Shown here: positions 5,297-28,082 of the stretch, in pieces
Layout: each line of letters opens with the position of its first letter
Position numbering within the stretch: the first letter of the stretch is position 1
Origin: Thermoproteota archaeon
GTDB lineage: Archaea > Thermoproteota > Bathyarchaeia > Bathyarchaeales > Bathyarchaeaceae
Direction: 5' to 3'
Length of the DNA stretch: 64,000 bases
Assembly (NCBI GenBank): GCA_042565955.1
Contig: JBHORG010000003.1
Coordinates: 33,328 to 97,327, forward strand
The notes under the pieces: model-generated
Told to the model about the DNA's origin: nothing
Database searches by the model: none
The model's input: the letters and a program-made list of their open reading frames with translations, nothing else
Made by a program: the position numbers and the translations under genes

Positions 5297-5471
5297 AATC
5301 TAATTTCTGATACTTTAATCCGTATCTATACAATCAATGTGGCTACAAAACGAATCAACAAATTCCAGAATGCCCAACATAACTAATATTCCTATAATAG
5401 TACTCCATTGGTAAAAACAACTATTTTTCTGAAAAATAAAGAAGCATTAACACTATTCTATAACTGTAAGG

Positions 5472-5563
5472 TGGTGCGGCCGCCGGGATTTGAACCCGGG
5501 ATTGCAGGCTTGGAAGGCTTCCACCGGATATGTCTGTGTCCTACCAGGCTAGACCACAACCGC
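5472..5563 (-). tRNA. tRNA-Gly (UCC) with ~15-nt intron, CCA encoded
   Basis: Reverse complement gives acceptor GCGGTTG/CGGCCGC and T arm CCGGG-TTCAAAT-CCCGG. An anticodon arm CAGGC-CTTCCAA-GCCTG forms only after removing ACATATCCGGTGGAA from inside the 5' stem strand. Confidence 0.7.
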
Positions 5564-5659
5564 ACATGCAAATGAATTGCAATTTAAGACAGTGAACGTC
5601 TTTTATGAATACTCTCTCTATTAAATAACTTTCCAAAAAATCAGATCACTCGAAAGAGG

Positions 5660-5748
5660 TGCGGCCGCCGGGATTTGAACCCGGCTCGTCAGCGTTCCGC
5701 CCTTTTGGGTTGGCAGGCTGATGTCCTTCCAAACTAGACTACGACCGC
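5660..5748 (-). tRNA. tRNA-Gly (GCC) with ~16-nt intron
   Basis: Acceptor GCGGTCG/CGGCCGC. Anticodon stem TCAGC/GCTGA encloses CTGCCA plus a 16-nt insert at or near position 37/38. The T arm is identical to the neighbouring tRNA-Gly. Confidence 0.8.
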
Positions 5749-6134
5749 TTAGGACTGTTTCAAGGTAACTTAGTGCATTTATTTCTTTTCGTAAAAAAGA
5801 AGCTTTCTGTCCCTTTTCTAGTCTACCCGTCAGGGAGAGACTCTGGAATTTTGTGTGTACAACAATACAGACCTTACAGGAGTTTTGATGTCCAAACAAT
5901 AAACTGGGGAATTAGACGCCATAGACAGAACAGAAATATGTTCTCTCTTTGAGCAATTAGAAAAACTTCATATACCTTACACGTTAGCTGTCGAAATAAC
6001 CTGTGACTGCCACGGGATTCTTAAGCTCTCCAAAGTAACAAATAAAAGAACGTGATACCCGCTTATGATGTCTTTTTCACATCTTTTCATGGGTTTCCTA
6101 AAATAACAATTTACTAGAATACTACTGTACATAT

Positions 6135-7127
6135 TTGGGAGGGCAACAACCAGTATTGAATCCAAAAAAAGTGGCGATAATCGTTCTTCTAGCTCTTCTT
6201 TTGTCAACGGCTTTTACAATTCTAAATACAACTTTGGCTCAAACAAATGATCCCCAGAAACAAAAAGCTCAAGCTCTCATGGGCTTTCTAGAGAACAGCA
6301 ACATGAGCATAGTGGTGGCTCTCAATAGATTCGATTCACAGAACATTACAGTGCCATCCGCTGAAACAGCATATAATGAAGGACTTGTACACGCCAAATC
6401 GGCTATTAACCTCTTGAACGAAGAAAAGTTCAGTGAAGCATGCAATGAAGCCGTTGAAGCAATGCAAAAATTCGAAAATGCCTTAAAAATACTAGAATTT
6501 GCCTCTTCAGTGGAACCAACCCCAACAGAGATAACTGCTGAAGAAGCAATCACTTTAAAAGCAAAGATAATTCGAACAATCGAACACTTCGAAAGGTTAG
6601 AAAATTTGACCACACAAGCTTCGAAGGTTGGATACAACACACTAACAATCGAGAAACAACTTAGACAAGTTAAACAACATCTAGAAAATGCGACAGAAAA
6701 ACTATATTCTCTAAACATAGAGGGCGCAGCTGAGGAGCTTTTCATAGCCAAAACATTACTTGATGAATTAACAGAACCCTTTGCCCGGTTAACCAATCTT
6801 GTTAAAGCATCAAATTCTGAGAAGTATCTACAAGAAGCCGAAATCAGAGTCTCCGAAGCTAAGTTAAACATAACACTTTCTGCAACCTTAACACAAGATG
6901 TTAAAAAAGATGCAATAACTGCTCTGAACAATTCGGAAATATACTTAGCAAACGCTAGAGACTTCATAGAAGTCAGCAATGTTGACGAGGCAATTGGAGA
7001 ACTCGAAGAAGCCAAAAAATGGGAAGAAGAATCCAACCGTGCCATAACAGCGGTAACCGATACTCCAAGTTCAGTTGAACCAACAACTGAAAGCATTATT
7101 AAACCAGAAATCTCAACATCGAAGTAG
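6135..7127 (+). CDS. secreted or anchored alpha-helical protein, function unknown
   Basis: Signal/anchor segment followed by a long helical Glu/Lys/Ala-rich sequence; TTG start. Confidence 0.5.
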   Translation: MGGQQPVLNPKKVAIIVLLALLLSTAFTILNTTLAQTNDPQKQKAQALMGFLENSNMSIVVALNRFDSQNITVPSAETAYNEGLVHAKSAINLLNEEKFSEACNEAVEAMQKFENALKILEFASSVEPTPTEITAEEAITLKAKIIRTIEHFERLENLTTQASKVGYNTLTIEKQLRQVKQHLENATEKLYSLNIEGAAEELFIAKTLLDELTEPFARLTNLVKASNSEKYLQEAEIRVSEAKLNITLSATLTQDVKKDAITALNNSEIYLANARDFIEVSNVDEAIGELEEAKKWEEESNRAITAVTDTPSSVEPTTESIIKPEISTSK

Positions 7128-7208
7128 TGGTGCCTTAGTCCTGAATCTACAGTACACAAAAGTTTTAGGCATAAACTTTAAACCTTTTGCTAGAGAAGTG
7201 AAAGCCCA

Positions 7209-8504
7209 TTGAGTAAAAAACGGGCATCCGCCTATCTTACATTCACTTTAATTCTTCTGTTGACACTGACTTCTCAGCAATCATTTTCGGAAGAGACAAC
7301 AGCCGAAACCTTAGTTTTGACAGTTTATACTGACGGTTTTGTGTTTGTTGACTTTTCCATTCTGGTTGACCAAACCTTTCCTACACAGAACATTACAGTT
7401 TTTGGTCAAGTTCTCGAAGACCTTCTTGTTGTCGATAAGGACGGCTTACCCTTAGATTACTCACTAAACAACTCTATACTTAGTGTTTTCAGCCTTGGCA
7501 CCGACGAAACCATCATTACATATCAAACTCAAGACCTCACTTCAAAAGAGGGAAGATACTGGACTCTGACACTTATTGCTCCAATAAATATGCGAATAAT
7601 TTTACCCGAAGAAACCGCAATCATAAGCCTAAACAAAGTGCCAGAAATGATAGAAACAAACAACAATAAAGTAACGCTTCTCATGACTTCTGGTGTAATC
7701 GAAGTAACCTATGTAGTAGGCATCATAGGAACTCAAGTGCACGCGCAAATAGTTCTAGATGACGCTGAAGCTTCTATCATGGAAATCAAGAATTTGGGCA
7801 TCATCGTAACTGAAGCTGAGACAAAACTTCAGGACGCAGAGGACGCTTTTTCTCTTGGAAATTATGCAGAAGCTGAAACTTTGGGAAATTATGTAAAAAA
7901 CTTGGTGATTCAAATTAATCAAACAGCAACTCAAGCCCAGTCCCAAATAATTGAGGCTGAAATCATAATAGCCAATGCCGAAAATGAGGGAAGAACCGAT
8001 GGATTAAATGATGCCAAAGACCTTTTTGATCAGGCTAAACACAATTTTGATCTTGGAGCCTATTTGGAAGCGTTGAGTTTGGCGACTCAGGCATTTTCTA
8101 AAGCTGAAGAATCTAGAATTTCTGTGTCTGATCAACCTGAAAATCTCCTAACACTTGAATTTTTTGGAGTAATGATGATTTCGGCCATCGTTATTTTAGG
8201 CTTCTTTTTTGGTCGGTCAAGAAAGAAACCTAAAGCTGAAGGGAAAAAGAAGAAGCGACTAATAGACTCCGAGCGAATATTTAGAGAACATAAGAATTTG
8301 ATGCCTGAAGAAAAACAAGCGATTCAATTTCTGGTAGACAACAATGGCGAAGCTTTCGAGGCGGAACTCTATGACTACGTTAAGCTTCCGAGAACAACCA
8401 CATGGAGAATGGTAAAACGGCTAAAAGGAATGAACATTATATCCGTGACTAAATTCAGAAGACAAAATCTGGTACGCCTCAAAAACAAATACAATATCAA
8501 ATAA
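7209..8504 (+). CDS. membrane-tethered winged-helix DNA-binding protein
   Basis: Signal peptide, ~300-aa extracytoplasmic part, one TM (FFGVMMISAIVILGFFFG), Lys-rich linker and a C-terminal wHTH-like segment LPRTTTWRMVKRLKGMNIISV. Confidence 0.6.
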   Translation: MSKKRASAYLTFTLILLLTLTSQQSFSEETTAETLVLTVYTDGFVFVDFSILVDQTFPTQNITVFGQVLEDLLVVDKDGLPLDYSLNNSILSVFSLGTDETIITYQTQDLTSKEGRYWTLTLIAPINMRIILPEETAIISLNKVPEMIETNNNKVTLLMTSGVIEVTYVVGIIGTQVHAQIVLDDAEASIMEIKNLGIIVTEAETKLQDAEDAFSLGNYAEAETLGNYVKNLVIQINQTATQAQSQIIEAEIIIANAENEGRTDGLNDAKDLFDQAKHNFDLGAYLEALSLATQAFSKAEESRISVSDQPENLLTLEFFGVMMISAIVILGFFFGRSRKKPKAEGKKKKRLIDSERIFREHKNLMPEEKQAIQFLVDNNGEAFEAELYDYVKLPRTTTWRMVKRLKGMNIISVTKFRRQNLVRLKNKYNIK

Positions 8505-8596
8505 TTGTTCTCTTCTGAAAACTGTTTGCATTGTTTTGAAATTGCCTTTTCGGATCTTTCCATGGATTTCCTAAAGTTATTCCACGATAATTCTTT

Positions 8597-9220
8597 TTGA
8601 CGAGGCTTGAAAAAATGCAAAAGAAAATTGGTATTTCAATAGTTGTGGTGACATTACTTCTCATGGGAGTAATGGCAACTTCAGTATTAGCATTAGACCT
8701 AACATCTGCAAAGAATATCGTTGTTTCAAAAGAGCTAGAAGCAACCGCAACATCAGTGACACCTGAAAGACTTGTATCTGTAAAACCTTACGACTCTTTA
8801 GCATCCGAAACTACTGACGAAGTTTCAATTTACCCAATTCCTGTCGAAATTGGGAGTATACCAGAAGTCAATCAACAGAACCTACGGGATGCTGTGCCAA
8901 ATACCTACGAAGAAGCTGAAACAAGAGTATCAACACTGAGAACTAGATTCCTATTGTATACTCATGATGGTACACACATCATGTGGGGTGTTGTTGGAAA
9001 TAACTACTTCGTAGGCTCAGACAACCTCGGTAAACGATGCTGGGGAATATACGGTAACGGCGTCTTTGCGGGATTCTATGACGGCGAATTCTTCTGGGGT
9101 AACTATCGGGGCGGCAACTGGAAAGCTGAAGGACTCTTCGGACAAAACTATGCGCACGGAAAATACATACTATTTCCAACAGCGGAGATAGCACCAGCAT
9201 TAACGACAGCTGACCCATAA
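8597..9220 (+). CDS. secreted protein, function unknown
   Basis: Signal peptide and a Gly/aromatic-rich C-terminal region; the start may be the ATG at 8615. Confidence 0.45.
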   Translation: MTRLEKMQKKIGISIVVVTLLLMGVMATSVLALDLTSAKNIVVSKELEATATSVTPERLVSVKPYDSLASETTDEVSIYPIPVEIGSIPEVNQQNLRDAVPNTYEEAETRVSTLRTRFLLYTHDGTHIMWGVVGNNYFVGSDNLGKRCWGIYGNGVFAGFYDGEFFWGNYRGGNWKAEGLFGQNYAHGKYILFPTAEIAPALTTADP

Positions 9221-9527
9221 ATACAACCAGTCACCACCCTCTCCCCCTTTTTTCTAAAACCGAAGTTTACCATTAAGTTATCTTCGTTATTGATGAAGGT
9301 AAAACTGTTAATGTAGGTTTTTTGTTTCAAAAGAAACTACCACGCTTAACTCGTACTTGCATTAATGAATAGGATTTCATGTTTAGAGCGCTTTTACAAG
9401 AGAAAATTGAATATTTTATGTTGATTTTGTTCTTTCATTGAAAAATTTTATAAGGCACCCCACCTAATTGGCAAAAGGTTGCCGTATACCGTTATTGTAT
9501 GTGGCAAAGAATTGGAGATGAAACTAA

Positions 9528-11117
9528 ATGAATTTGAGAAGACCAAATGCAGACGAAGCAACCGGTACATTCAATCGATCCAAGAGCGTTACTCCCATGT
9601 CAGGGATCTGTTCAAGATGTGTCGATGGATGTAAAGGCGGTTGCGAAATCTGGTTATCATCATTTAGAGGCCGCGAGGTACTCTACCCTGGACCCTTCGG
9701 AGAAGTAACTGCGGGAGCTGACAAAAACTACCCCATAGACTATTCCCACCTAAACATTCAAGGATACGCTCGCGGAGCTAAAGGGCTTCCAGAAGGCGTT
9801 AAAGCGGACCCAGATACTGCCCTTTTCCCTAAGGTGAACACCGAAACGGATTACGGATGGACCAAAAAGATCAAGCTCAAGGTACCCATATTCACAGGAG
9901 CACTGGGTTCTACGGAAATCGCTCGAAAGAACTGGGAACACTTTGCCATAGGCGCCGCAATATCTGGAATCACACTTGTCTGTGGCGAAAACGTTTGTGG
10001 AATCGATCCTGGACTTGTGCTAAACAGTAATGGAAAGATCACCAAGTCGCCTGAAATGGATAGGCGAATAGAAATCTACAAAAAGTATCATGAAGGTTAC
10101 GGAGAACTCCTTGTCCAGATGAACGTTGAGGACACCCGATTTGGAGTGGCTGAATACGTATCGTCCAAACATGGCTTAGATACAATCGAACTGAAGTGGG
10201 GACAAGGTGCCAAATGTATAGGTGGAGAAATTAAAGTAAAAAGCTTGAATCGAGCTATCGAACTTAAAAAGAGAGGCTATATTGTTTCACCAGATCCTAC
10301 TATTAAGGAGAACCAAGTGGCCTTCAATGAAGGAGCCATTAAAGAATTTGAGCGACACTCCCGTTTAGGCTTTGTAACCAAAGAGACATTCTTAGAAGAA
10401 GTTGACCGTCTCCACGGCTTAGGATTCAAACGAGTTACGTTAAAGACTGGGGCATATTCTGCTTTAGAATTAGCTATGGCACTACGTTATAGTGCAGAAG
10501 CAAAACTTGACCTACTTACAATTGATGGTGCCCCTGGCGGAACAGGTATGAGTCCTTGGCCAATGATGAACGAATGGGGAATTCCAACATTCTATTTGCA
10601 GGCGCTTATGTACAATTTCTGTGAAAAACTTTCAAGCAAAGGCATGAGAGTTCCTGATATAGCTATGGCTGGCGGTTTCTCCTCAGAAGATGGCGTTTTC
10701 AAGGCACTTGCAATGGGTAGCCCCTATGTTAAAGCGGTGTGTATGGGAAGAGGCTTAATGATACCTGGAATGGTTGGAAAGAACATCGAAACCTGGCTAA
10801 GGGAGGGCAATTTACCAAAATCGATTTCAAAGTTCGGTGGTAACGTTCATGAAATCTTTGTTGCCTATGCAGAACTTGAGGAAAAGTTTGGTTCAGACAT
10901 TAAAAACATACCTTTAGGTGCTATTGGAATCTACACTTATGCTCAGAAATTTAGGGTTGGACTCCAGCAGTTAATGGCTGGAAGCAGAAACTTCAACCTT
11001 TCTACTATATCCCGCAAAGACTTGATGGCATTAACAGAAGAGGCAGCAAAAATCTCGGGAATCCCATATGTCATGGACGCATACGGTGAAGAAGCAAACA
11101 GAATACTAGATGAATAA
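9528..11117 (+). CDS. FMN-binding glutamate synthase family protein
   Basis: N-terminal CSRCVDGCKGGC cluster and a GltB-domain-2-like core (DGAPGGTGMSP, GGFSSEDG). Confidence 0.8.
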   Translation: MNLRRPNADEATGTFNRSKSVTPMSGICSRCVDGCKGGCEIWLSSFRGREVLYPGPFGEVTAGADKNYPIDYSHLNIQGYARGAKGLPEGVKADPDTALFPKVNTETDYGWTKKIKLKVPIFTGALGSTEIARKNWEHFAIGAAISGITLVCGENVCGIDPGLVLNSNGKITKSPEMDRRIEIYKKYHEGYGELLVQMNVEDTRFGVAEYVSSKHGLDTIELKWGQGAKCIGGEIKVKSLNRAIELKKRGYIVSPDPTIKENQVAFNEGAIKEFERHSRLGFVTKETFLEEVDRLHGLGFKRVTLKTGAYSALELAMALRYSAEAKLDLLTIDGAPGGTGMSPWPMMNEWGIPTFYLQALMYNFCEKLSSKGMRVPDIAMAGGFSSEDGVFKALAMGSPYVKAVCMGRGLMIPGMVGKNIETWLREGNLPKSISKFGGNVHEIFVAYAELEEKFGSDIKNIPLGAIGIYTYAQKFRVGLQQLMAGSRNFNLSTISRKDLMALTEEAAKISGIPYVMDAYGEEANRILDE

Positions 11118-11228
11118 GGGACACACATTCCTTTCACTTTTTCTTTTTTCATTCCATTTTTCTAATTAATTCAAGGTAGTGCCACAAAGAATATTACTGC
11201 TGATTTTCTCAGTATTTCAGGGATAATA

Positions 11229-11813
11229 ATGAACAGTAAATTGATCGCAGTAGTAATAATTATTGTCGCTGTTATTGTGGTCGGGATTGTTTTTGCGATG
11301 CTATACTTTGGAACTTACAATGACCTAGTGGGACTCGAGGTGACAGTAGATGAGAAATGGGCTGATGTTGAGGCTGTTTTACAGAGAAGGTTTGACTTGA
11401 TACCAAACGTAGTGGATGCAGCTAAACTATACATAGAATATGAAGGGTCGATACTTGAAAACATAACAAGGCTTAGAAGCCAATGGGCAGCAGCACAAAC
11501 AACCGGAAACGAAAATGCTATAGTAAATGCAACAAGTAACCTGGATGCAGGAATATCTCGGTTAATTGTTGTTATGGAAAATTACCCTGAGTTGGAATCA
11601 TCAGAAATAGTACGAGACTTGATTACTGAACTTGAAGGTTCAGAAAACAGGATTTCCACAGAACGTATAAGGTACAACGGTGCTGTAGGAGATTACAACA
11701 GCGCTCGTAGGGTTTTTCCTGCAAATCTTTGGGCCTCAGGATGGGGATTCGAAACTAGGGAATTTTTCGAAGCTAGCATTGGGGCTGATAATCCTCCAGC
11801 AGTAATACAATAA
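11229..11813 (+). CDS. LemA family protein
   Basis: N-terminal TM, then QRRFDLIPNVV and YPELESS motifs characteristic of LemA. Confidence 0.85.
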   Translation: MNSKLIAVVIIIVAVIVVGIVFAMLYFGTYNDLVGLEVTVDEKWADVEAVLQRRFDLIPNVVDAAKLYIEYEGSILENITRLRSQWAAAQTTGNENAIVNATSNLDAGISRLIVVMENYPELESSEIVRDLITELEGSENRISTERIRYNGAVGDYNSARRVFPANLWASGWGFETREFFEASIGADNPPAVIQ

Positions 11814-11842
11814 CCTATCCCAACACACCTAGAGGCGTTCAA

Positions 11843-12628
11843 ATGCTTCACATACCACGAACCATTCTTTTTTTCTTTATATCAATGACAATATTAGTCT
11901 CTTTTTCAACTTCAATTCCAGTTGAATTATTAACTGTCAATGGACAGATAATTTCAAATGACTGGAAAAATGACATTGAAGAGTATCTTCAAGTTGTTGA
12001 TTTGAACACCACTGCTGAGATAGTAATCTATGTTGTTGATTCCCTTTATGATCATGGAATCATGAAAGATGGAAGTGAAATCAATGACCTAGTTCAGCTT
12101 GGAGTATATATATTCAATGAGTTACCTATGGAAACGCCCAGCGGTACAGTAGTTGGAATTGGAAAAAAGGGAAAAGATAACGGTGTTCTAGTTCTTGTTG
12201 TCATGATAGAGCGGGAATGGAGAATCGAAGTAGGCTATGGATTGGAGGGCTACATAACAGACGTAGAATCTAAAAGAATAGCTGAAGATTATTTAGTTCC
12301 AAAATTTCAGGAGGGGGAGTATGGGGAAGGATTGGCAAACACCATTATTGCCCTCGCACTACAGATACCAGAAGTTGATGAAGTGGATCAGATGTCAACG
12401 CGTGGAAGATACGTCTACGATAGCGCAGAATTGCCTGCTGATGAGGAGTTTCCGTGGTGGGTTATATTGTTAATCATTATTTTTGTCCTTGTTATGATTA
12501 GGTTTGGTGGCCGTTTCGGTGGCGGTAGAAGAGGGAGATCTTGGGGTAGTTCAGGTGGTGGAGGTCGCTCTGGAGGTGGAGGAGGCGGTGGAAGTTCTGG
12601 AGGAGGCGGTTCCTCTGGAGGATGGTAA
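11843..12628 (+). CDS. TPM-domain protein with Gly-rich tail
   Basis: Signal sequence, TPM-like core (EIVIYVV, WRIEVGYGLEGYITD), TM and a GGGRSGGGGGGGSSGGGG tail; the usual partner of LemA. Confidence 0.75.
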   Translation: MLHIPRTILFFFISMTILVSFSTSIPVELLTVNGQIISNDWKNDIEEYLQVVDLNTTAEIVIYVVDSLYDHGIMKDGSEINDLVQLGVYIFNELPMETPSGTVVGIGKKGKDNGVLVLVVMIEREWRIEVGYGLEGYITDVESKRIAEDYLVPKFQEGEYGEGLANTIIALALQIPEVDEVDQMSTRGRYVYDSAELPADEEFPWWVILLIIIFVLVMIRFGGRFGGGRRGRSWGSSGGGGRSGGGGGGGSSGGGGSSGGW

Positions 12629-12697
12629 TACTTCACTAATACTTATGTACAATAGAAGCTAATACGTATCAAAAAATCTGCTGATATGTAGAAAACG

Positions 12698-13570
12698 CTA
12701 TTTTGTTGATATTAGCTCTATTTCGAAAAGCTTTGACCACTTTTTTCCAGTCACGAAGAGTCTATCCTCGTTTGGATCATATGCAATTCCGTTTAGTACA
12801 TTTCTAGTAGTCGGATTCACCAAATCTTTGAGACCCGTCAAGTCTATCCGTCCTGTAACCTGACCTGTCTGTGGATCTATTATTACAATCAGGTCTTCTT
12901 TCCAGATATTCGCGTAGATTCTTCCATTAATGTATTCAAGTTCATTAAGCAACTTTACCGGCTCTTCATCATAAACTTCAACCTGAGCAAGGGTCTGGAA
13001 TGTTTCTGGGTCTAGAAAATACAAAGTTTCGTTTCCAACACTCATAATCAACGTACTACCGTTGTGGGTAAGTCCCCATCCTTCAGTGGAATAATTGAAA
13101 GTCTGCAATAACTCAAAGGAGTTTTTGTTATAAACGAAACCTGTGTTGTTTTTCCATGTTAACTGGATTATTTCATCCTCGAAAATTGTGAGGCCTTCTC
13201 CAAAGAAAGTGTTGGGTAAAGAGTAAAGCTGTTTTACGTTGCCTGTTTCCAATTCTACGCGACGTAGTGTAGATTGACCGTAAAGGCCTGTCCCTTCGTA
13301 TAAGACGCCATCATCAAAGACTAGTCCTTGCGTGAATGCATTTTCATCATGGTCATACATATTGACAATCTGGTATGTGTAGTTCAGTGGTTCTAGTTCA
13401 GGCTCAGGTTCAGGATCTGGCTCTGGTTCGGGTTCTGTGGGTACATCAGGTGAAGTATTTGGATCAACTGTGTTGTTACTAAGTAAAACCACCGTAACCG
13501 AAATTGCAGCTATTAAAACCAAGATAATCAGCATAATTGTTATGTGTTGTCGTTTCATGATTGTATCCAA
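12698..13570 (-). CDS. glutaminyl-peptide cyclotransferase (beta-propeller type)
   Basis: FTQGLVFDDGVLYEGTGLYGQSTLRRVELETG and TEGWGLTHNG match the plant/bacterial glutamine cyclotransferase family; N-terminal anchor and a PEPEPDPEPE linker. Confidence 0.8.
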   Translation of the reverse strand: MDTIMKRQHITIMLIILVLIAAISVTVVLLSNNTVDPNTSPDVPTEPEPEPDPEPEPELEPLNYTYQIVNMYDHDENAFTQGLVFDDGVLYEGTGLYGQSTLRRVELETGNVKQLYSLPNTFFGEGLTIFEDEIIQLTWKNNTGFVYNKNSFELLQTFNYSTEGWGLTHNGSTLIMSVGNETLYFLDPETFQTLAQVEVYDEEPVKLLNELEYINGRIYANIWKEDLIVIIDPQTGQVTGRIDLTGLKDLVNPTTRNVLNGIAYDPNEDRLFVTGKKWSKLFEIELISTK

Positions 13571-13875
13571 TAACTTCTGGTAACTCGGCTCTTTTAACAG
13601 TTAATGAAAAAAAATTTGGTATCGCACTTCATCTTAGAAATAGTGAAAGATCTGATAACCTCAAAACAGAAAACTAGCTGAAGTATCTTTTTGTGTAAAT
13701 ACGACTCTGTTGAATCGCTAGAGTTTGTTGCCATCAAGATGTCTCCAATTCTTGTTATCACAATAATGTCGACAAAGACTCACTCAAAAAGCACCATAGA
13801 AAATATCTCCTATCTGTTCCCCTCCATTTTTTGAGTTTAATGGTCTAAAATGTTAAATAGATTTTCCAAGAAACC

Positions 13876-15093
13876 TTGATGTTCCCGGGGGATGTACAGA
13901 TGGAATACTTCCTATTGTTTTTGATTTGGATTGCTGCCGCCTTCTTTTTTCCAGTTATGCTTAGACGATTTCAGATACCCTGGGTAACCGCAGTAATTTT
14001 TGCAGGAATAATCATTGGACCTAATGGTTTGGGTATTGTCAATTCAGGAGAAGTCATGGATTTCCTTGCAACAATAGGGCTTGTTTTCCTAATGTTCACC
14101 GCGGGAATGGATATTAAATTTTCAAAACTAAAAAAAGCAGGAAAAAAGGTGCTGCTCTTTTCTATGGTGAATCTTGGAATTCCCTTTGCTACCGGTTGTT
14201 TTGTTGGAATTTACTTAGGGTTATCCTTTTTTGCATCACTAGTTTTGGGAGTTTGTTTTAGTTCATCATCTGTAGGATTAATCGTTCCAATGTTAAGAGA
14301 GTTGAATCTTAAATCAAAAGTAAAATCAACACTTGTTTCAGCAATATTTCTTGAAGACGTAATTAGCCTTATTCTTCTGGCAATCTTGTTGAAGGCGGTG
14401 GTACCCAATTCTTCGATACCCTTGGAGATTTTTCCAATTGTATTATTAGTATTCGTTTTCGTGGTTCTTTATTTAATACCAATACTTCAAGAATGGCTCT
14501 TTTGGTTTGGACCGTCAAAAGACGTCTTTGCTGGAGGAGTGAGGGCCGTTTTTATCACATTGGCTCTTGTGGCATTAATGGCCGAACTAATAGGTGTTCA
14601 TGCCATGGTTGGAGGATTCTTGGCTGGCTTAACCCTCTCGGATATGCTCAAAAGACGGAAGAAACTTGAACAAAATATCATTGCAATCAGTTACGGATTT
14701 CTAATTCCAATTTTTCTACTTAGTCTGGGAATGACAACAAATATTGCAACGCTCTTTGAACCAGGTGACGCTCTATCAACAGGTTTGATCGTGTTATCAC
14801 TGATAGCAAGTAAATCAGCGAGCGGGTTTCTAGGAGGTCGCCTCCTCGGATTTCCCTCAAGAATCAGCTTGGGAATGGGTGTAATGACAATTGCTCAGAT
14901 GTCAACTACATTAGCGACGGCAAGTTTGGCATTTCAATATGAAATTTTTGATGAAAACATCGTGGCAGCTCTAGTTATTTTGTCAATAATTACCATCATA
15001 ATCACTCCGTTACTTACAAAGTTAATTTTTAGATCGCATAGCGAAAAACCGAGTAAATTTAGTAGATTATGGCGCGGAAACAATGCAAAATGA
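13876..15093 (+). CDS. cation:proton antiporter (CPA family)
   Basis: About 11-12 TM segments and Na+/H+ exchanger-like motifs (LVFLMFTAGMDI). Confidence 0.8.
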   Translation: MMFPGDVQMEYFLLFLIWIAAAFFFPVMLRRFQIPWVTAVIFAGIIIGPNGLGIVNSGEVMDFLATIGLVFLMFTAGMDIKFSKLKKAGKKVLLFSMVNLGIPFATGCFVGIYLGLSFFASLVLGVCFSSSSVGLIVPMLRELNLKSKVKSTLVSAIFLEDVISLILLAILLKAVVPNSSIPLEIFPIVLLVFVFVVLYLIPILQEWLFWFGPSKDVFAGGVRAVFITLALVALMAELIGVHAMVGGFLAGLTLSDMLKRRKKLEQNIIAISYGFLIPIFLLSLGMTTNIATLFEPGDALSTGLIVLSLIASKSASGFLGGRLLGFPSRISLGMGVMTIAQMSTTLATASLAFQYEIFDENIVAALVILSIITIIITPLLTKLIFRSHSEKPSKFSRLWRGNNAK

Positions 15094-15339
15094 CTGTTGA
15101 ATCGTTAATTAGTGACGGACGCATACTATCTACAGTTCATAGATTTATTTTGTGCAATTAACAATTTTATTGTGTGTTGATGAAGCATCTCGTTAGTAGC
15201 GTTAGGCTTCCAATAACCGTGATGATTACACTACCTATTATATAGGTCACCGGATTTTATTATGTACCATTTTGTGGATTCAATTCTATAAAAAAACCAA
15301 CTGAGTTAATATCGTCGGATTATTCCAAGTTAAAAAGAA

Positions 15340-15373
15340 GGTGCCGAGGACCGGACTTGAACTGGCGACGACT
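15340..15373. repeat. attL: displaced copy of the tRNA-Phe 3' end
   Basis: GGTGCCGAGGACCGGACTTGAACTGGCGACGACT matches 20197-20230 at 33 of 34 positions (T versus C at position 24). Confidence 0.85.
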
Positions 15374-16202
15374 ACTTCAATGGTTGATTTAGGCGATTTA
15401 TATGATTTCTTGTTGTTTGCTCGAGCAAAATTGAACTTGAGTCAACTAACTTCTAAGTAATATTTACGAAGAGTCAGGGCCTTTCTTAGAGAAAGAAGTT
15501 CTGTGACTGATAGAGATATTCAAGTTTATATCCAGAAGAAACAGGAAAATTGCGCCCCGTAATATGTTTCTAACAATCATTTCTTCTTTCAAAGCCTATT
15601 TCCGAGGCTACAAGGGTTTGTCATGGATGGATGGTTATAAGCATCCTTCAAGCCCTTTGAAGCTGAAGCCTGAGATAAAAAAAGAAGATGTTAGAAAGTT
15701 CATTGAAGCAATTGACGATCTGGGCGTCAAATGTGTAGCCCTGTTTCTTGCTTCTTCTGGACTAAGACGAGGAGAAGTCCTGGGCCTAAAGAAAGTTGAT
15801 GTTGATAGAGATCTCAGGACTATTGTACCGAATTGTCATTCGGGGCAGACTAAACATTCAGGAATAACTTTCTACAACGAAGAAGCTGAAAGCTGTCTTT
15901 TGGAGTATGAAGAGAAACAAACTCAGAGCGAAAAAGAAAGTGATAGACTTCTACCAGTACGATATGAAAGGTTCTTTTATGCGTGGAAGAGGGCGCGTGA
16001 AAAATCAGCAATATACCTTAAACCTAAGGATATGAGAGATTTCTTCAGTCAAGAAATGGGTAAAGCATTTGTTCCAGATAGATACATTGACGTCTTTCAA
16101 GGTAGAGCCCCTAAAAATGTATTAGCCAAACACTACAATCCTCATGGAATTGCAGTGTTGAAGGAAATCTATGAAAAAGCAAACCTGGAATTTTTTGATT
16201 GA
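15374..16202 (+). pseudogene. tyrosine recombinase (SSV-type-like), C-terminal portion, disrupted
   Basis: The frame entering from attL reads DLYDFLLFARAKLNLSQLTSK-stop-YLRRVRAFLREKSSVTDRDIQVYIQKKQE (core-binding-domain-like). TAA is at 15458-15460 and a +1 frame change lies near 15545-15562. The intact ORF 15564-16202 carries the catalytic region (GLRRGE, GQTKHSG, MRDFF, LAKHY). Confidence 0.7.
16141..16202 (+). repeat. int-end repeat copy 0 (genuine 3' end of the integrase ORF)
   Basis: Core TTGAAGGAAATCTATGAAAAAGCAAACCTG at 16158-16187, encoding LKEIYEKANL. Confidence 0.85.
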
Positions 16203-16260
16203 ATTTTTTTCAAAAAAAAAAACAGAATAATTTCTTTGTTAATAGTAATTCTTGAGGTGA

Positions 16261-16428
16261 TTGTTTTTGAAGGAGTGGAAATGTGTGTCGGTTGGAGATC
16301 ATAAAAATGTTGGCAAGAGGGTTGAGGAATACCAAAAAAATGGTTGGCATCTACATACCTATGCATGTGCTGGAATTGGGGCAATGATGGCTGTTAACCA
16401 TTACTTGCTGTTTGAAAAAGGGGAATAG
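16261..16428 (+). CDS. small hypothetical protein (cassette gene)
   Basis: About 55 codons (TTG 16261 or GTG 16285) ending GWHLHTYACAGIGAMMAVNHYLLFEKGE. Not in the ORF track, and its stop overlaps repeat copy 0b. Confidence 0.25.
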   Translation: MFLKEWKCVSVGDHKNVGKRVEEYQKNGWHLHTYACAGIGAMMAVNHYLLFEKGE

Positions 16429-16457
16429 AAAAAGCAGACTTGAAGGTAATTGGTTAA
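16426..16457 (+). repeat. int-end repeat copy 0b (right half only)
   Basis: TAGAAAAAGCAGACTTGAAGGTAATTGGTTAA aligns with the right half and tail of copy 1 (TATGAAAAAACTGATTTGAAGATAATTGGATAA). Confidence 0.65.
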
Positions 16458-16497
16458 ATCCAATTCTATCAAGACACAGAGTTAATGGAGAGTTTTC

Positions 16498-16655
16498 GGT
16501 TACTCTTTGTTATTGATTTGGAGTTTATGGTTACTTTTAGTTACGTTTTTTTGGATGTTGGGTACTATTTGTTAATAATTTTGATGAAATAATTACTTAT
16601 TGTCACTTTTTCTGTGAATTGTGTTACTTTTTGTGTAACTCTAGAACAAGGCACC
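16498..16655. repeat. degenerate tandem repeat with 31-bp period, about 5 units
   Basis: TACT anchors at 16501, 16532, 16563, 16594 and 16625 are exactly 31 bp apart. Unit starts are TACTCTTTGTTAT, TACTTTTAGTTAC, TACTATTTGTTAA, TACTTATTGTCAC and TACTTTTTGTGTA. Confidence 0.7.
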
Positions 16656-16777
16656 AAAATTATTGTTATAACACCGTTATGTGGTGACATTCTATGTAAC
16701 TAATTCCACAAATAGCCTTCCACCGTGGGTGTAAACTTCTAATCAACTGATAATAATAGTATTAGTAGTGGAAAGAA

Positions 16778-16930
16778 ATGCAGAAACAAAAAAGATTAGA
16801 GTGTTGCGATATAACCTTTAAAACAGAGGAGCATTTCAAAACACATAGAGAAAGGGTGCACCGAGAACCCCTCCCCATCTGGTGCAGAGGCATTATGGGC
16901 GGGTGCGTAAACTGCGGTGGCTGCGTCTAA
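16778..16930 (+). CDS. small Cys/His-rich protein (zinc-finger-like)
   Basis: 50-aa ORF MQKQKRLECCDITFKTEEHFKTHRERVH...CVNCGGCV; not in the ORF track. Confidence 0.35.
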   Translation: MQKQKRLECCDITFKTEEHFKTHRERVHREPLPIWCRGIMGGCVNCGGCV

Positions 16931-16969
16931 GAACCAGCAAGTAATAACCCCTCGATCAACTTTGTTTTT

Positions 16970-17056
16970 TCAATACTTGTGGGACATTACACGGGCTATT
17001 CTCCTGAAGTGTTGAAGGAAATCTATGAAAAAACTGATTTGAAGATAATTGGATAA
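16970..17056 (+). repeat. int-end repeat copy 1 (integrase C-terminal remnant)
   Basis: Translates SILVGHYTGYSPEVLKEIYEKTDLKIIG-stop; core at 17012-17041. Confidence 0.8.
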
Positions 17057-17097
17057 TTAGGTTCAAAAAACCAAAATAACCGTTCCTATCCAAGTAG

Positions 17098-17595
17098 TTA
17101 GAACCTATTAAAGCTAAACATTTTCTCAAACGGTTTCTTCTTTTTTTGTTTTGGCTGTTCGGCAGGATACCCGAAAGTTAATAATGCAACAACTTTCCAT
17201 TTATCAGGGATTTTGAGCAATTCCTTGACTTTTTTTTCTTTGCAAGCTCCTATCCAACATGAACCGATCCCTAAAGCCCATGCAGCAATAACCATGTTCT
17301 GCATTGCAATTGTAGTGTCAACAACGGCCCATTTTCCAGTCAAAAGCGATTTTATGTCTGCACAGCCAACAATGACAACGGGAGCATTTTTAACAAAACG
17401 GGTAATCAAATTATCGCACAAGTTCTTCAGTATATCATGATCATTCACAATGACGAAACGAATAGGTTGTCTATTAGCAGCTGAAGGAGCCTGTCTGCCA
17501 GTCTCAAGAATTTGCTGCAAAACATCTTCAGGTATATCTTTGTTTTCATAGCGTCTAATGCTCCTTCGGCTGAGAAATAAATCAAGAAGAGACAT
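17098..17595 (-). CDS. nitroreductase family protein
   Basis: RRSIRRY, APSAANRQP and the C-terminal GYP motif. Confidence 0.85.
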   Translation of the reverse strand: MSLLDLFLSRRSIRRYENKDIPEDVLQQILETGRQAPSAANRQPIRFVIVNDHDILKNLCDNLITRFVKNAPVVIVGCADIKSLLTGKWAVVDTTIAMQNMVIAAWALGIGSCWIGACKEKKVKELLKIPDKWKVVALLTFGYPAEQPKQKKKKPFEKMFSFNRF

Positions 17596-17659
17596 AAAAC
17601 CTCACTTTGTATTTCAAGCAGCAATACTTAATAATATTTGTGAGTAGGGCAGAGAGTCT

Positions 17660-17755
17660 AGAAACTGTTTGGCTAAAAACTTTGATTCCCATGGAATCGC
17701 CATGTTGAAGGAAATTTATAAAAAAGCAAAATTGACGATATTTTGGAAACAGTAA
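17660..17755 (+). repeat. int-end repeat copy 2 (integrase C-terminal remnant)
   Basis: Translates NCLAKNFDSHGIAMLKEIYKKAKLTIFWKQ-stop, compared with integrase NVLAKHYNPHGIAVLKEIYEKANLEFFD; core at 17705-17734. Confidence 0.85.
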
Positions 17756-17863
17756 TTCAATCTAAATACCTTAGAATTTGTCATATAATTCTAATTTTCT
17801 ACAGACTGTAATAACACGCAGAATTTAAATAGACTTCAAGAAACAACAGTATCAGGGAAAAAA

Positions 17864-18493
17864 ATGTCTTTGGAATCTAACAAAACACTAGGCGGTATAG
17901 GCGCAATTCTGTTAGCAATCCCGTTTCTTAGCTTAATTGGAATAATACTTGTGTTGATTGCTATGAAGGGGATGGGAGACTACTATGATGATGACGACAT
18001 TTTCAAAAATGCACTTTATGGTTTCATTTTTGGTTTCGTCGGAGTTATTGCTTTGATAGCTGTTATCCTAATGCTTGCATTTGGTTTTTCAACCGTTTCA
18101 CCTGTTATCACAGATACTACTGCGATCGGATTTAGTGGATTCGGATTATTCATAATAGCGTTCATTGTACTCTATGTATTCTCTCTGATTGGAGCAATAT
18201 TCTATAGAAAATCGTTGGATATTCTCTCAGAAAAGTCTGGTGAACAAATGTTCAGTACTGCGGGATTAATTTTGCTAATAGGTGCTGCGATACCCGTAAT
18301 AGGTGAAATACTAAAGTTTGTAGCGTGGATATTGGCAGCTGTAGGATTCTTTAATATAAAAAAATCAACTCAGATACCCGAATCAAAAGAACCAGTTCTT
18401 CCAGGTGAAGGAAAACAATTCTGCAAATATTGTGGAGCACCAATTCAACCTGAAGCAACATTCTGTCAAAAATGTGGCAAAAAGATAGAGTAA
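17864..18493 (+). CDS. multi-pass membrane protein (DUF996-like) with C-terminal zinc ribbon
   Basis: The N-terminus is paralogous to ORF 27495-28082 (LSLIGIILVLIAMKGMGDYY versus LSLIGIILLLIGLKGLADFY); C-terminal CKYCGAPIQPEATFCQKCG. Confidence 0.7.
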   Translation: MSLESNKTLGGIGAILLAIPFLSLIGIILVLIAMKGMGDYYDDDDIFKNALYGFIFGFVGVIALIAVILMLAFGFSTVSPVITDTTAIGFSGFGLFIIAFIVLYVFSLIGAIFYRKSLDILSEKSGEQMFSTAGLILLIGAAIPVIGEILKFVAWILAAVGFFNIKKSTQIPESKEPVLPGEGKQFCKYCGAPIQPEATFCQKCGKKIE

Positions 18494-18530
18494 ACCATTA
18501 TTACCCTTTTTTTAAATTCTCTAAATAATT

Positions 18531-18611
18531 AGTCGCCTACACTACACAGATTATTCATCTAAAATTTTGAATGAAATCTATGAAAAAGCAAACCTGAAAA
18601 GCTTAATCTGA
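18531..18611 (+). repeat. int-end repeat copy 3 (integrase C-terminal remnant)
   Basis: Translates SRLHYTDYSSKILNEIYEKANLKSLI-stop; core at 18567-18596. Confidence 0.8.
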
Positions 18612-18744
18612 TTGTATTTTTTTATCTGATAATAAAGAGAAAGAAAAGTTTTTTGACAAAACAGCCAAATATTGTACAAGAATTTAAGATTCATACAATT
18701 TAAAAGCCTTTTTTGGATTATTGTATTAATATATTCTCACCTGA

Positions 18745-19041
18745 GTGACTAAGGGGGTATTACTTATGGAATTGTTCAGAGCTTTATTGGATTCTGGTGT
18801 GTTAATACCAGGTGTGGCTCTAACTTTAGTTTTTTTTGTAGCGTACCTTTTGGTATCTGCAAAGCATTCTATTCCTCTAAGCGTTGATGAGATTGAAACT
18901 TTATGGAAGGCCCATAAGCAATCTACATATTGTAAAGCAGATAATTGGATTGGAATAACTAAAAAGCAGGAAATGATTGGGTATAAATGTGAATGTGGCT
19001 ATAAGCAAATTCAAAAGAAGCCACTTCTTAATTTTAATTAG
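18745..19041 (+). CDS. small membrane protein with Cys motif, function unknown
   Basis: One TM (VALTLVFFVAYLLV) and CKADNW...CECGY; the start may be the ATG at 18766. Confidence 0.4.
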   Translation: MTKGVLLMELFRALLDSGVLIPGVALTLVFFVAYLLVSAKHSIPLSVDEIETLWKAHKQSTYCKADNWIGITKKQEMIGYKCECGYKQIQKKPLLNFN

Positions 19042-19089
19042 AACTTTGATTTTTTTATGTGGACGTATCTCCAAGTCAGTGATAGTGAT

Positions 19090-19172
19090 GCTTTATATTG
19101 ACTATAAACTAAGAACGATTGAAGAGAATTTATGAAAAAGCAAACTTGAAAGTGAAGTTGATTATAATGTGA
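19090..19172 (+). repeat. int-end repeat copy 4 (frameshifted integrase C-terminal remnant)
   Basis: LYIDYKLRTIEE in one frame is followed by RLKRIYEKANLKVKLIIM-stop in another; core at 19119-19148. Confidence 0.75.
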
Positions 19173-19206
19173 GGAAAAATTTCTTTTTTAAGCATGTCTA
19201 CGTTTT

Positions 19207-19374
19207 CTAGTCATTTCTCATTAAATAAATTGGTTTATCCAATTCAAGTTGGCTAACACAGGATTTCAGAAGTTTGTAATATGCCTTTCTTGCTTTTGTT
19301 CTAATTTTTCCTTTCAAAAAAAGTATCTCTTTTTCCATCATATCTATTTCAAATCTTATTGCTTCTTTCCTCAT
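19207..19374 (-). CDS. small hypothetical protein (cassette gene)
   Basis: 55-aa ORF MRKEAIRFEIDMMEKEILFLKGKIRTKARKAYYKLLKSCVSQLELDKPIYLMRND. Not in the ORF track and more protein-like than the listed + strand ORF 19249-19446. Confidence 0.25.
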   Translation of the reverse strand: MRKEAIRFEIDMMEKEILFLKGKIRTKARKAYYKLLKSCVSQLELDKPIYLMRND

Positions 19375-19521
19375 CTTATTAATCAAATTACTTCCCCCAA
19401 AATGAAGAATTTAGTACCAATTAATTCAAAAATCTCCAATAGATAATAAATTTATTGATTTTCAAATCTGTCTTTCTAAACAATATTTTAAATCTGTTTA
19501 TTTGCATGCTGGTTCTCAAGT

Positions 19522-19596
19522 AGACATAATACGGATTTTTCACCAGAGCGGTTGAAGGAAATCTATGAAAAAGCTAACTTGAGATTACTAAAATAA
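19522..19596 (+). repeat. int-end repeat copy 5 (integrase C-terminal remnant)
   Basis: Translates RHNTDFSPERLKEIYEKANLRLLK-stop; core at 19552-19581. Confidence 0.8.
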
Positions 19597-19662
19597 GCAA
19601 CTTACTATCATGTTCAAAACTTAAATATGCCCTGAATGATACAAAGTGCGGGGGAATACTAG

Positions 19663-19944
19663 ATGACTAAGTATGTGGTATCTCTTCCTGCAAAGTGGGA
19701 ACAGTTTCTTGTAGGTTTAGCCGATGATCACCAAGTTGATCTGAATAGCGTCGTCAATGAATTGTGCACATGGGCCTTTTCTAATTCCGAAATAAAGAAA
19801 CAGTTTGAACTATTGTTGGATGATGCTTTTCCCCCAATGGGTGAAGTTGCAGACAAAGCAAGGGCGGCTGGAGAAGAAATCGGCATGAATGAAGAAGAAA
19901 AGGAAGAAGAATCTGAAGAGGAATCTCACGATCATAGAGACTGA
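19663..19944 (+). CDS. small acidic protein, function unknown
   Basis: 93 aa with a highly acidic tail (EEEKEEESEEESHDHRD). Confidence 0.45.
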   Translation: MTKYVVSLPAKWEQFLVGLADDHQVDLNSVVNELCTWAFSNSEIKKQFELLLDDAFPPMGEVADKARAAGEEIGMNEEEKEEESEEESHDHRD

Positions 19945-20008
19945 GACTTTATCATAATTGAACAATTATTCTGGGAGAACTTCTCAAAGTTGAAGACTAC
20001 CACAATAG

Positions 20009-20196
20009 AGAAGAAAAACAACTGTTAGTCTTTATCTTACTAAAGAAACTGTTGAACGGGCACGTTTTCATAACTTAAATCTTAGTAGAATTGCAGAACA
20101 AGCGTTAATCAGCATTTTAGACTATTTAGAACCACAAAACAACAAACAAAGCTCAAACTTTCTTGGCACAGGTTATCTTCTGAAAGAAAGTGTAAT
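20009..20196 (+). pseudogene. open frame reading into attR: putative Int(N) part with ribbon-helix-helix-like segment
   Basis: No stop from 20009 into the repeat. Reads KTTVSLYLTKETVERARFHNLNLSRIAEQALISILDYLE...ESVMVPRTGLE in the same codon phase as the frame leaving attL. No canonical start codon before the ATG at 20195. Confidence 0.4.
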
Positions 20197-20301
20197 GGTG
20201 CCGAGGACCGGACTTGAACCGGCGACGACTCGGTCTTCAGCTTCACCCTCAACAATGTTTATTGTTGAGTCGAGTGCTCTCCCAGTCTGAGCTACCTCGG
20301 C
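20196..20301 (-). tRNA. tRNA-Phe (GAA) with ~29-nt intron, CCA encoded
   Basis: Acceptor GCCGAGG/CCTCGGC and D arm GCTC-AGACTGGGA-GAGC. Anticodon arm CTCGG-CTGAAGA-CCGAG forms after removing ACTCAACAATAAACATTGTTGAGGGTGAA, which contains a perfect 9-bp hairpin. T arm GCCGG-TTCAAGT-CCGGT. Confidence 0.8.
20197..20230. repeat. attR: att core inside the functional tRNA-Phe
   Basis: GGTGCCGAGGACCGGACTTGAACCGGCGACGACT spans CCA through the T arm to the variable loop of the tRNA. Confidence 0.85.
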
Positions 20302-20871: not shown

Positions 20872-20966
20872 TGGTGGGCCCGGCCGGATTTGAACCGGCG
20901 ATCTCTTCCGCGTGAGGGAAGCGTCTTTTGGCCTCAAAGGGAGTTAACCAACTGGACCACGGGCCC
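20872..20966 (-). tRNA. tRNA-Val (CAC) with ~18-nt insert in the D arm, CCA encoded
   Basis: Acceptor GGGCCCG/CGGGCCC, intact anticodon arm CTTCC-CTCACGC-GGAAG and T arm GCCGG-TTCAAAT-CCGGC. There are 36 nt between position 9 and the anticodon stem instead of about 18. Confidence 0.75.
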
Positions 20967-27494: not shown

Positions 27495-28082
27495 ATGACT
27501 TTTGAATCAAGTAAAAATCTTAGTGCTGTCGGAGCTTTATTGATAGTTATTGGTGCTGTCTTAGGTTTCGTAGTGTCTTTTTCAGGTATTCTGTCATTAA
27601 TCGGTATAATTCTGTTGCTTATTGGATTAAAGGGGCTTGCGGATTTCTACAAAGAAGAGGGTATATTCAACAATGCGCTTTATTCCATACTTATTGCTGT
27701 GGTGGGATGTGTAGTTGGTGTCGGAATCATAGCGGTTACAGCTGTTTCGGCTTTGGCTGATGAGGGCATCGATTGGGCTAATGTAGACGATTGGGTTAAT
27801 TATGGAACTGATGTATTTACAGATTTTGACTTTAGTCCAATATTGGATCTGTTAGTTGCATTATTGGTTGGTCTAATAATTTTCTATGTAGTCTTGATCA
27901 TTTCAATGTATTTCCTTAGGAAGTCAATGAATCAATTATCAACAAAGTCTGGAATCGGTTTGTTTGGTACCGCTGGGATACTAGTGCTTATAGGCGCAGT
28001 AATACCCGTTATAGGGTTACTGCTAATTTGGATTGGTTTTGTACTAGCTACAGTAGCATTATTCCAAATGAAAAAAGAGTAA
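27495..28082 (+). CDS. multi-pass membrane protein (DUF996-like)
   Basis: Paralog of the element-borne ORF 17864-18493 but lacking its zinc ribbon. Confidence 0.65.
   Translation: MTFESSKNLSAVGALLIVIGAVLGFVVSFSGILSLIGIILLLIGLKGLADFYKEEGIFNNALYSILIAVVGCVVGVGIIAVTAVSALADEGIDWANVDDWVNYGTDVFTDFDFSPILDLLVALLVGLIIFYVVLIISMYFLRKSMNQLSTKSGIGLFGTAGILVLIGAVIPVIGLLLIWIGFVLATVALFQMKKE

Follow-up and report, generated by a model that had tools for sequence, protein, structure and literature searches.

The segment 15340-20230 of the 64-kb stretch of Bathyarchaeia DNA analysed here (the window) is very probably a trapped element with a self-splitting integrase, and its cargo an array of short cassettes built on copies of the integrase's own tail. 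In the mechanism that we propose, a tyrosine integrase would have borne the attachment site of the element (attP) inside its own open reading frame (ORF), in a flexible linker between an N-terminal part of about 87 amino acid residues, int(N), with a ribbon-helix-helix (RHH) module, and a XerA/pNOB8-like C-terminal part of 287 residues, int(C). Recombination of attP with the 3' part of the tRNA-Phe(GAA) gene would have inserted the circle and restored the tRNA from element DNA, leaving int(C) at the left attachment site (attL) and int(N) at the right one (attR). Both halves would later have decayed in this strain, and the element could no longer excise by itself. The copies of the integrase tail would have served as recurrent recombination junctions, at which cassettes were gained, replaced and reordered; an exchange next to the integrase gene would also have replaced the C-terminal tail of the enzyme. 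We infer this order of events from the features described below.

The segment is bracketed by a 34-bp repeat, GGTGCCGAGGACCGGACTTGAAC(T/C)GGCGACGACT, which occurs in the 64-kb window only at 15340-15373 (attL) and 20197-20230 (attR), both on the plus strand. The two copies are identical at 33 of 34 positions, with one T/C mismatch, and the shuffles of the window give an expectation of 0 matches. The right copy, as the initial annotation had recognized, is the 3' part of an intact tRNA-Phe gene, from the variable loop to the CC end, and the left copy is a displaced form of the same part. The Rfam tRNA model RF00005 matches at the right copy (20199-20301, minus strand, 46.3 bits). The integration target, tRNA-Phe(GAA), occupies 20196-20301 of the minus strand with the CCA included. 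It was missed by ARAGORN on the raw sequence because an intron of 29 nt (20242-20270) splits the anticodon stem, and it was called as tRNA-Phe(GAA) when the intron was removed. The intron has a 9-bp hairpin and is located in the 5' strand of the anticodon stem instead of the canonical position 37/38; the attachment site ends before it. No second tRNA-Phe-like gene was found in the 2.04-Mb, 95.6%-complete assembly, and the Rfam scan of the element matched the tRNA only. The G+C content of the element is 35.1%, compared with 39.7-40.0% in the flanks.

A comparison with empty target loci, suggested at the outset as a check, agrees with an insertion at this site. The tRNA-Phe-HIT locus is conserved across the genus, and in at least 12 congeners the tRNA itself is the single att-like match at the locus, with no int gene within 14 kb. 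The region that separates tRNA-Phe from a conserved block (window about 5,400-13,400) is hypervariable and ranges from 2 to 13 kb among the congeners. Two genomes have kept a second att copy without int at this locus. The observations that the initial annotation had named as refuting its reading were not made. The sister strain, represented by locus L071, is 92-97% identical to the window and has the same left flank; its attL is identical to the window attR at 34 of 34 positions. The T/C mismatch was considered as a marker of the crossover and was dropped, the attL of the sister strain having C.

The frame that starts at 15341, VPRTGLELATTTSMVDLG..., continues out of attL into a tyrosine recombinase with core-binding and catalytic domains. 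This int(C) pseudogene (15341-16202, plus strand) scores above the cut-off for both PF00589 and PF16795, and the catalytic signature R...K...R...Y is present as SGLRRGE, TKHSG, KDMRDFF and AKHY in alignment with XerA. The GTG at 15341, within attL, can start int(C). Alignment with intact relatives locates three lesions, one more than the initial annotation had counted: CAA to TAA at 15458-60, TAC to TAA at 15560-62 and the insertion of a single A near 15575. The ORF of the catalytic domain, 15564-16202, is intact. In L071 the orthologous int(C) is uninterrupted and attL is a perfect copy, and therefore the damage to int(C) and the att mismatch in the window are recent.

On the right side, the frame free of stops from 20009, RRKTTVSLYLTKETVERARFHNLNLSRIAEQAL...KESVMVPRTGLEPATT, reads RRKTTVSLYLTKETVERARFHNLNLSRIAEQALISILDYLEPQNN...KESVM-VPRTGLEPATT and enters attR in the codon phase of the left frame, as had been claimed. 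The int(N) remnant (19941-20196, plus strand) is damaged as well, a point missed earlier: its start is lost (ATG to CTG at 19941), stops are found at 19959 and 20006, and the frame changes ahead of the RHH. The CcdA-like RHH itself, 20012-20194, is open into attR and matches the CcdA-type family with 23.0 and 26.9 bits, against a Pfam cut-off of 22.4. The rebuilt gene would have about 375 codons (about 87 from int(N) and 287 from int(C)) and not about 350 as first estimated.

The same architecture is found in related integrases. Most of the 177 homologues are about 287 residues long and start at or near the peptide V/M-VPRAG(L/F)EPATT, which corresponds to the reverse complement of the T-arm and acceptor end of a tRNA. 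This tRNA-derived peptide (VPRAG[LF]EPATT or its other frame) is located near the N-terminus in 82 of the 120 homologues listed, out of 177, and in 64 of these 82 the called ORF begins no more than three residues ahead of it. Pairs of attL and attR of 24-38 bp were located in L006, L007, L017, L020 and L023. In the last four of these loci an ATG-started ORF of 70-100 codons with a homologous RHH enters attR in the frame of attL and int(C); L006 has a corresponding RHH ORF, but its first in-frame start is GTG. For L067, L069 and L070 the in-phase agreement of int(N) and int(C) follows from the coordinates. Altogether an RHH frame runs in phase into attR at seven loci by translation, the window included, and at three by coordinates, that is, at nine loci besides the window. 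The rebuilt N-terminal part thus does resemble the N-termini of related integrases, as the initial annotation required of it.

One of these loci is a second split-integrase element in the genome of the window itself, in the region C22:205204-221990 (locus L016 covers C22 201000-220000). This element of about 14.2 kb is inserted at tRNA-Val(GAC), with attL at 207696, int(N) at 221676-221910 and attR at 221913. Its att is read in another frame (VRWWAGPDLNRRPSA), and this frame too is continuous. The int(C) parts of the two elements are only 36% identical, yet both int(N) parts have the RHH core motif NLSRIAEQALISILDYLEPQN, which suggests an exchange of modules. An older att copy is located at C22 205204, in tandem upstream of the element, followed by remnants only. 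At L023 a third att copy lies 4 kb past attR and encloses, at 8611-12624, genes for DUF3795, DUF6326, ADH and DUF998 with no int and no remnants; this segment has the look of an earlier capture. The 2-Mb genome of the window has at least 12 genes for tyrosine recombinases whose open frames exceed 280 residues, one of them just past the tRNA-Val/tRNA-Ala pair (C22:222258).

An unsplit gene was also found. In P0082 (356 residues, locus L065) a single ORF runs from the RHH through TGGTCCCGCGGGCAGGATTTGAACCTGCGACACTC into the recombinase. The embedded stretch, when reverse-complemented, gives a clean 3' end of a tRNA, and the vicinity contains no tRNA gene. The AlphaFold model of P0082 consists of RHH-like helices (residues 10-41), a low-confidence linker (45-77) that holds the att peptide, and a confidently predicted two-domain recombinase (75-350). 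In a fold search with this model, archaeal XerA proteins were the nearest solved folds. Because the att peptide sits in the linker, either reading frame of the tRNA can be tolerated.

It is important to compare this family with the known archaeal integrases. SSV-type "suicidal" (type I) integrases are known from SSV1/SSV2, pXZ1, pTN3 and pT26-2 (PMC8371274, PMC7253208) and from NitEve-E3 of Thaumarchaeota (PMC6563490). They have been described from Sulfolobales, Thermococcales, Archaeoglobales and a small number of Methanosarcinales, and Thaumarchaeota have yielded a single split integrase that resembles SSV1 Int (PMC8371274, PMC7253208, PMC6563490). The present family shares with them attP within the int ORF, the 3' part of a tRNA as target, which is restored by element DNA, and the placing of int(C) at attL and of int(N) at attR; the att frame likewise differs between members, and the two parts of int evolve separately, as modules, as seen for the C22 element and the window. 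Unlike SSV1, however, it lacks the N-terminal domain of that integrase (D-335, PF07935), the N-terminal module being a CcdA-like RHH, and int(C) by itself has the two domains of a complete recombinase. The match of the window family to PF16795 (Phage_integr_3) is partial, 31.5 bits over profile positions 104-145 only, compared with 207 bits over 2-161 for SSV1 Int and 27.8 bits, also partial, for pNOB8 Int. The hosts also differ, being mesophilic sediment Bathyarchaeia, and tandem att copies, reported as never observed for suicidal integrases (PMC7253208), occur here.

The sequence comparisons place the enzyme closer to pNOB8/XerA-type recombinases than to SSV1 Int. The alignment with pNOB8 Int extends over 291 residues with 27% identity (E 1e-17), while that with SSV1 Int covers 37 residues only. 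The int(C) part alone spans nearly all of XerA (residues 19-283 against 11-278). The score for the XerA equivalog NF040815 (68 bits, cut-off 220) and that for the IntI profile TIGR02249 (28 bits, cut-off 265) are both below threshold. A maximum-likelihood tree and the BLAST matrix locate the family next to the pNOB8-type integrases (support 82/51) and outside the SSV1/pXZ1/pT26-2/pGE2 clade (96/90). The approximately unbiased (AU) test retains a joint clade with the known suicidal integrases (p 0.245). The tree thus weakly favours an independent origin of the split architecture, while the AU test is compatible with one clade. Best full-length similarity, the Pfam signature and the C-terminal motif ...LK(K/E)IYE(E)KA are shared with the pNOB8-type (type II) integrases of Sulfolobus conjugative plasmids. 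The pNOB8-type gene, however, stays intact on integration, while here the ORF is cut between the RHH and the recombinase body, and the body keeps both domains and the start codon in att. Among plasmids, only Sulfolobus conjugative plasmids gave matches to the integrase. A viral affiliation was considered and rejected: the core was not found in IMG/VR contigs, and the phage protein collection gave no match.

The cargo between the two halves has neither a viral nor a plasmid backbone; it consists of five or six short cassettes, each closed by a copy of about 45 bp of the int 3' end. The int 3' end recurs six more times in the element, always on the plus strand and with an in-register stop (...LKEIYEKANL-xxx-stop). 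The first member of this repeat family is the core and tail of int itself (16155-16202, plus strand, GTGTTGAAGGAAATCTATGAAAAAGCAAACCTGG...TGA). All cassettes are given here along the plus strand. Cassette 1a (16203-16457) has a 55-residue ORF (16261-16428) and a short int 3' remnant at about 16425-16457, and occurs also in L023, L059, L060 and L062. Cassette 1b (16458-17056) consists of a GTTAC-rich non-coding stretch, a 50-residue ORF (16778-16930) and remnant 3 (16983-17056, ending in GHYTGYSPEVLKEIYEKTDLKIIG and a stop). Cassette 2 (17057-17755) encodes a nitroreductase on the minus strand (17098-17595), is closed by remnant 4 (17648-17755) and is found also in L019, first after int, in L059 and in L071. 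Cassette 3 (17756-18611) encodes a DUF996 membrane protein with a zinc ribbon (17864-18493), followed by remnant 5 (18538-18611), and is present in L023, L006, L056 and L071. Cassette 4 (18612-19172) has a 98-residue ORF (18745-19041) and remnant 6 (about 19087-19172). Cassette 5 (19173-19596; 27.6% GC) has no convincing ORF (59 residues, minus strand) and ends with remnant 7 (19523-19596). Between the last remnant and int(N) there is a 93-residue ORF with an acidic C-terminus (19663-19944, plus strand), which has no family match and no counterpart in the other loci.

A chromosomal paralogue of the cassette DUF996 protein is located 9 kb away, at window 27864-28079 (46% identity over 72 residues). 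In cassette 1b, many GTTAC(T) motifs occur at 16498-16655; Tandem Repeats Finder reported no 31-bp periodic repeat there at a score of 30 or more. L071 (5593-6089), L023 (4163-4456), C22:208650-208963, C77:23682-23917 and L055 (148-392) have in common a conserved block of about 300 bp, which lacks an ORF, is rich in GTTAC/GTAAC motifs and contains a promoter-like AAAATTTTAAAGG. It is located directly 3' of the int stop in four elements of differing int subtype and adjoins a tRNA 3' end on C77. The block may represent an origin, a binding region of arm type or a gene for an RNA.

The arrays are not confined to the window. A profile of the C-terminal 45 residues, run against the six-frame translated genome, gives clusters at two places only, the window element and the C22 element (8-9 copies), all co-oriented. 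The layout is found also in L006, L019 (at least nine copies), L023, L056, L059, L060, L061, L069/70 and L071, and is not present in L007, L017, L020, L066 and L067, which bear hypothetical genes of mobile-element type. The core occurs in 5 of 61 related genomes, in strand-consistent clusters, with 0 in the reversed control. Across the arrays the cassettes range in size from 0.25 to 2.5 kb and carry nitroreductase, flavin reductase, NUDIX, MFS and membrane-protein genes. Backbone genes of L019 are common to the array-free L017 and L020, so the array there sits between int and the backbone.

Among about 45 remnants nothing survives upstream of position 231 of the 291 positions of the int profile, that is, the last 55 codons at most are kept, and int(N) occurs once per locus, beside attR. 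The loss of everything but the int 3' end is not predicted by random decay of stacked elements. The passive decay of tandem full elements was for this reason judged insufficient: int(N), att and the int body (positions 1-230) are present in none of the arrays.

Cassettes are shared between the arrays in differing orders. The nitroreductase unit takes the third place in the window, the first in L019 and a place ahead of cassette 1a in L059. Arrays also share, with different neighbours, the DUF996 unit, cassette 1a and a flavin-reductase unit. When cassettes are compared between arrays, the remnant moves with the gene to its left. A swap was also found at the strain level. L071 and the window are collinear as far as ...ATCTATGAAAAAGCAAAC in int, and collinearity resumes with GAAATCTATGAAAAAAC in the following core; between these points 830 bp in the window are replaced by an unrelated, ORF-less stretch of 497 bp in L071. 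The breakpoints are located in GAAATCTATGAAAAAGCAAAC, within the 21-bp core; that on the left is in the tail of int itself, and the integrases end accordingly in NLEFFD (window) and NLRILS (L071), each followed by a stop. The shared and reordered cassettes together with the breakpoints in the middle of the core indicate that the cores are recombination junctions.

The conserved block, GTTGAAGGAAATYTATGAAAAAGCAAACYTGAA, has a consensus frequency of 0.8-1.0 over about 33 nt, compared with a background of about 0.4 on either side. Pairwise identity is 0.77 among the remnants and 0.74 among the real genes. As a sign of selection this conservation is suggestive only, because the remnants come from two int subtypes and may be young.

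Several points weigh against the reading given at the beginning. An empty tRNA-Phe site with exactly the left flank of the window was found in no congener, the region concerned being the hypervariable one of 2-13 kb. P0082 is the sole unsplit gene found and belongs to a subfamily of 52% identity; a targeted search for unsplit close relatives gave only a read-through of int(N) (P0121). By sequence, the protein does not clearly belong to the SSV/pTN3/pT26-2 clade. The initial annotation had called the integrase SSV-type, and this stands for the architecture (a split gene, in phase at nine related loci, with the unsplit P0082) but not clearly for the protein family, in which pNOB8 and XerA are closer. 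In the arrays, the equal conservation of the core in remnants and genes could come from youth or homogenisation instead of a selected site. The cassette junctions vary by several nucleotides, with no single fixed position. The cores have no hairpin potential (mean folding z 0.12 over 42 remnants), and attC-like hairpins in the remnants were ruled out on this ground.

The exchange of cassettes might be explained by ordinary growth of an array, a reading to which we give only a little less than an even chance. Two related elements would co-integrate at the att site, and homologous recombination between int 3' ends or older remnants would delete the redundant backbone, int(N), att and the int body; arrays in which an internal att or a long stretch of int homology remained would be unstable and lost. 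The remnants of two int subtypes (NPHGI... and TDYSPE...) in one array, the tandem att copies at C22 and L023, the variable position of the junctions and the backbone genes retained in L019 all fit this scheme, and an activity resembling homologous recombination is known for Int-pTN3 (PMC8371274). However, it requires repeated recombination over only 21-45 bp of identical sequence, none of the about 45 remnants is an intermediate that retains more of int, and the abrupt start of several remnants at the core is left unexplained.

Alternatively, the exchange may be site-specific, which is possible, with the balance somewhat on the side of doubt. The core of 21-33 bp in the last int codons would then be attI-like and the remnants attC-like, recombined by this or another recombinase. 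The conserved block is sharply bounded, the remnant moves with the left-hand cassette as attC would, and the swap runs from mid-core to mid-core with replacement of the int tail. The array always begins at the int 3' end and is co-oriented, and array-bearing int genes fit the core better than several array-free ones. Against this, the junctions vary as described, the core has neither dyad symmetry nor a hairpin, its likeness to the tRNA att is limited to the heptamer ACTTGAA, L066 has a good core match and no array, and the cassette genes lie in either orientation. If the exchange is of this kind, the element would be a platform for gene capture, with a site in the last 7-11 int codons at which cassettes are inserted, excised and reordered site-specifically, each insertion next to int creating a new C-terminal tail. 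Such a platform would be integron-like with different parts, and we propose it tentatively, with rather more reserve than conviction.

The self-splitting of the integrase can also be read in another way. The partition may be formal only: int(C), started from a GTG or ATG in att, would be a self-sufficient pNOB8-type integrase, the RHH a free-form accessory module for arm binding or directionality, and integration a switch. The near-complete alignment of int(C) with XerA, the XerA folds in the fold search and the full-length match to pNOB8 Int are in agreement with this, as are the GTG that attL provides and the att peptide in a linker predicted to be flexible. The ORF starts close to the att peptide in 64 of the 82 peptide-bearing homologues listed point in the same direction; however, gene callers habitually take the first available start, and called starts are no evidence of translation. 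The RHH ORF has no stop before att in 10 of 10 loci, and N-terminally truncated SSV-type integrases are reported to be inactive in vitro (PMC8371274), both of which speak against an independent int(C). We consider this reading unlikely on the whole. The split may nevertheless remove only an accessory DNA-binding domain, because int(C) covers nearly all of XerA and GTG/ATG lies in att. A chance or duplicated tRNA fragment beside an unrelated integrase-like ORF, with no integration at all, can be practically dismissed, since it has in its favour only that fragments of tRNA type are generally abundant in archaeal genomes, while the shuffles give 0 matches, the frames are continuous, and the two flanking pieces match by homology, at many loci, the two halves of a single gene.

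The surroundings of the element have some further features. To the left of attL, a Na+/H+ exchanger gene (13876-15093) belongs to a part of the locus (13400-15339) that is non-syntenic in the congeners and common to L071 alone; the gene may itself be older captured DNA at a tRNA hot-spot. A stretch of 1.5 kb (window 11161-12687) is missing from the otherwise collinear contig of L071. To the right, ARAGORN predicts a candidate 95-nt tRNA-Ala(GGC) at 20872-20966, which has no Rfam match at the gathering threshold.

Integrons were reportedly described in archaeal metagenome-assembled genomes by Ghaly et al. in 2022. The arrays found here resemble integrons in that they come after a tyrosine recombinase gene, are co-oriented and consist of cassettes (0.25-2.5 kb) that mostly have one gene and a short closing repeat, and in that cassettes are shared in differing orders between arrays. 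They differ in that the repeat is made of the recombinase's own last codons instead of a separate attI, has no hairpin or imperfect palindrome, and accompanies genes in either orientation; in addition, the platform resides within a tRNA-integrating mobile element, and the recombinase is not IntI. In pdif modules of Acinetobacter plasmids and in the accretion of cis-mobilizable elements (CIME) and integrative and conjugative elements (ICE), dif-like or att sites lie outside genes. Short conserved sites that bound exchangeable modules and the stacking of elements at one target are common to these systems and to the present one, but here the site is the integrase coding sequence itself. A literature search found no published description of this cassette arrangement.

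Descriptions of self-splitting integrases come mainly from hyperthermophilic archaea, and a single origin was proposed in a review. The present family is large (177 homologues), occurs in mesophilic sediment archaea, and combines the split architecture with an RHH module and a pNOB8/XerA-like body that is complete after the split. This makes two questions testable: whether the enzyme is killed by the split or switched in its directionality, and whether the architecture arose once or more than once. The organisation of the cargo is the less expected part, with accessory genes delimited by copies of the integrase tail and swapped between close strains. An integron-like system of this kind, if it is one, would work without hairpin sites, with its site inside the recombinase gene and its platform on a tRNA element with a self-splitting integrase. 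If a dedicated reaction is involved, the integron problem would have been solved a second time, independently, and one of the most abundant groups of sediment archaea would have in it a route of gene flow.

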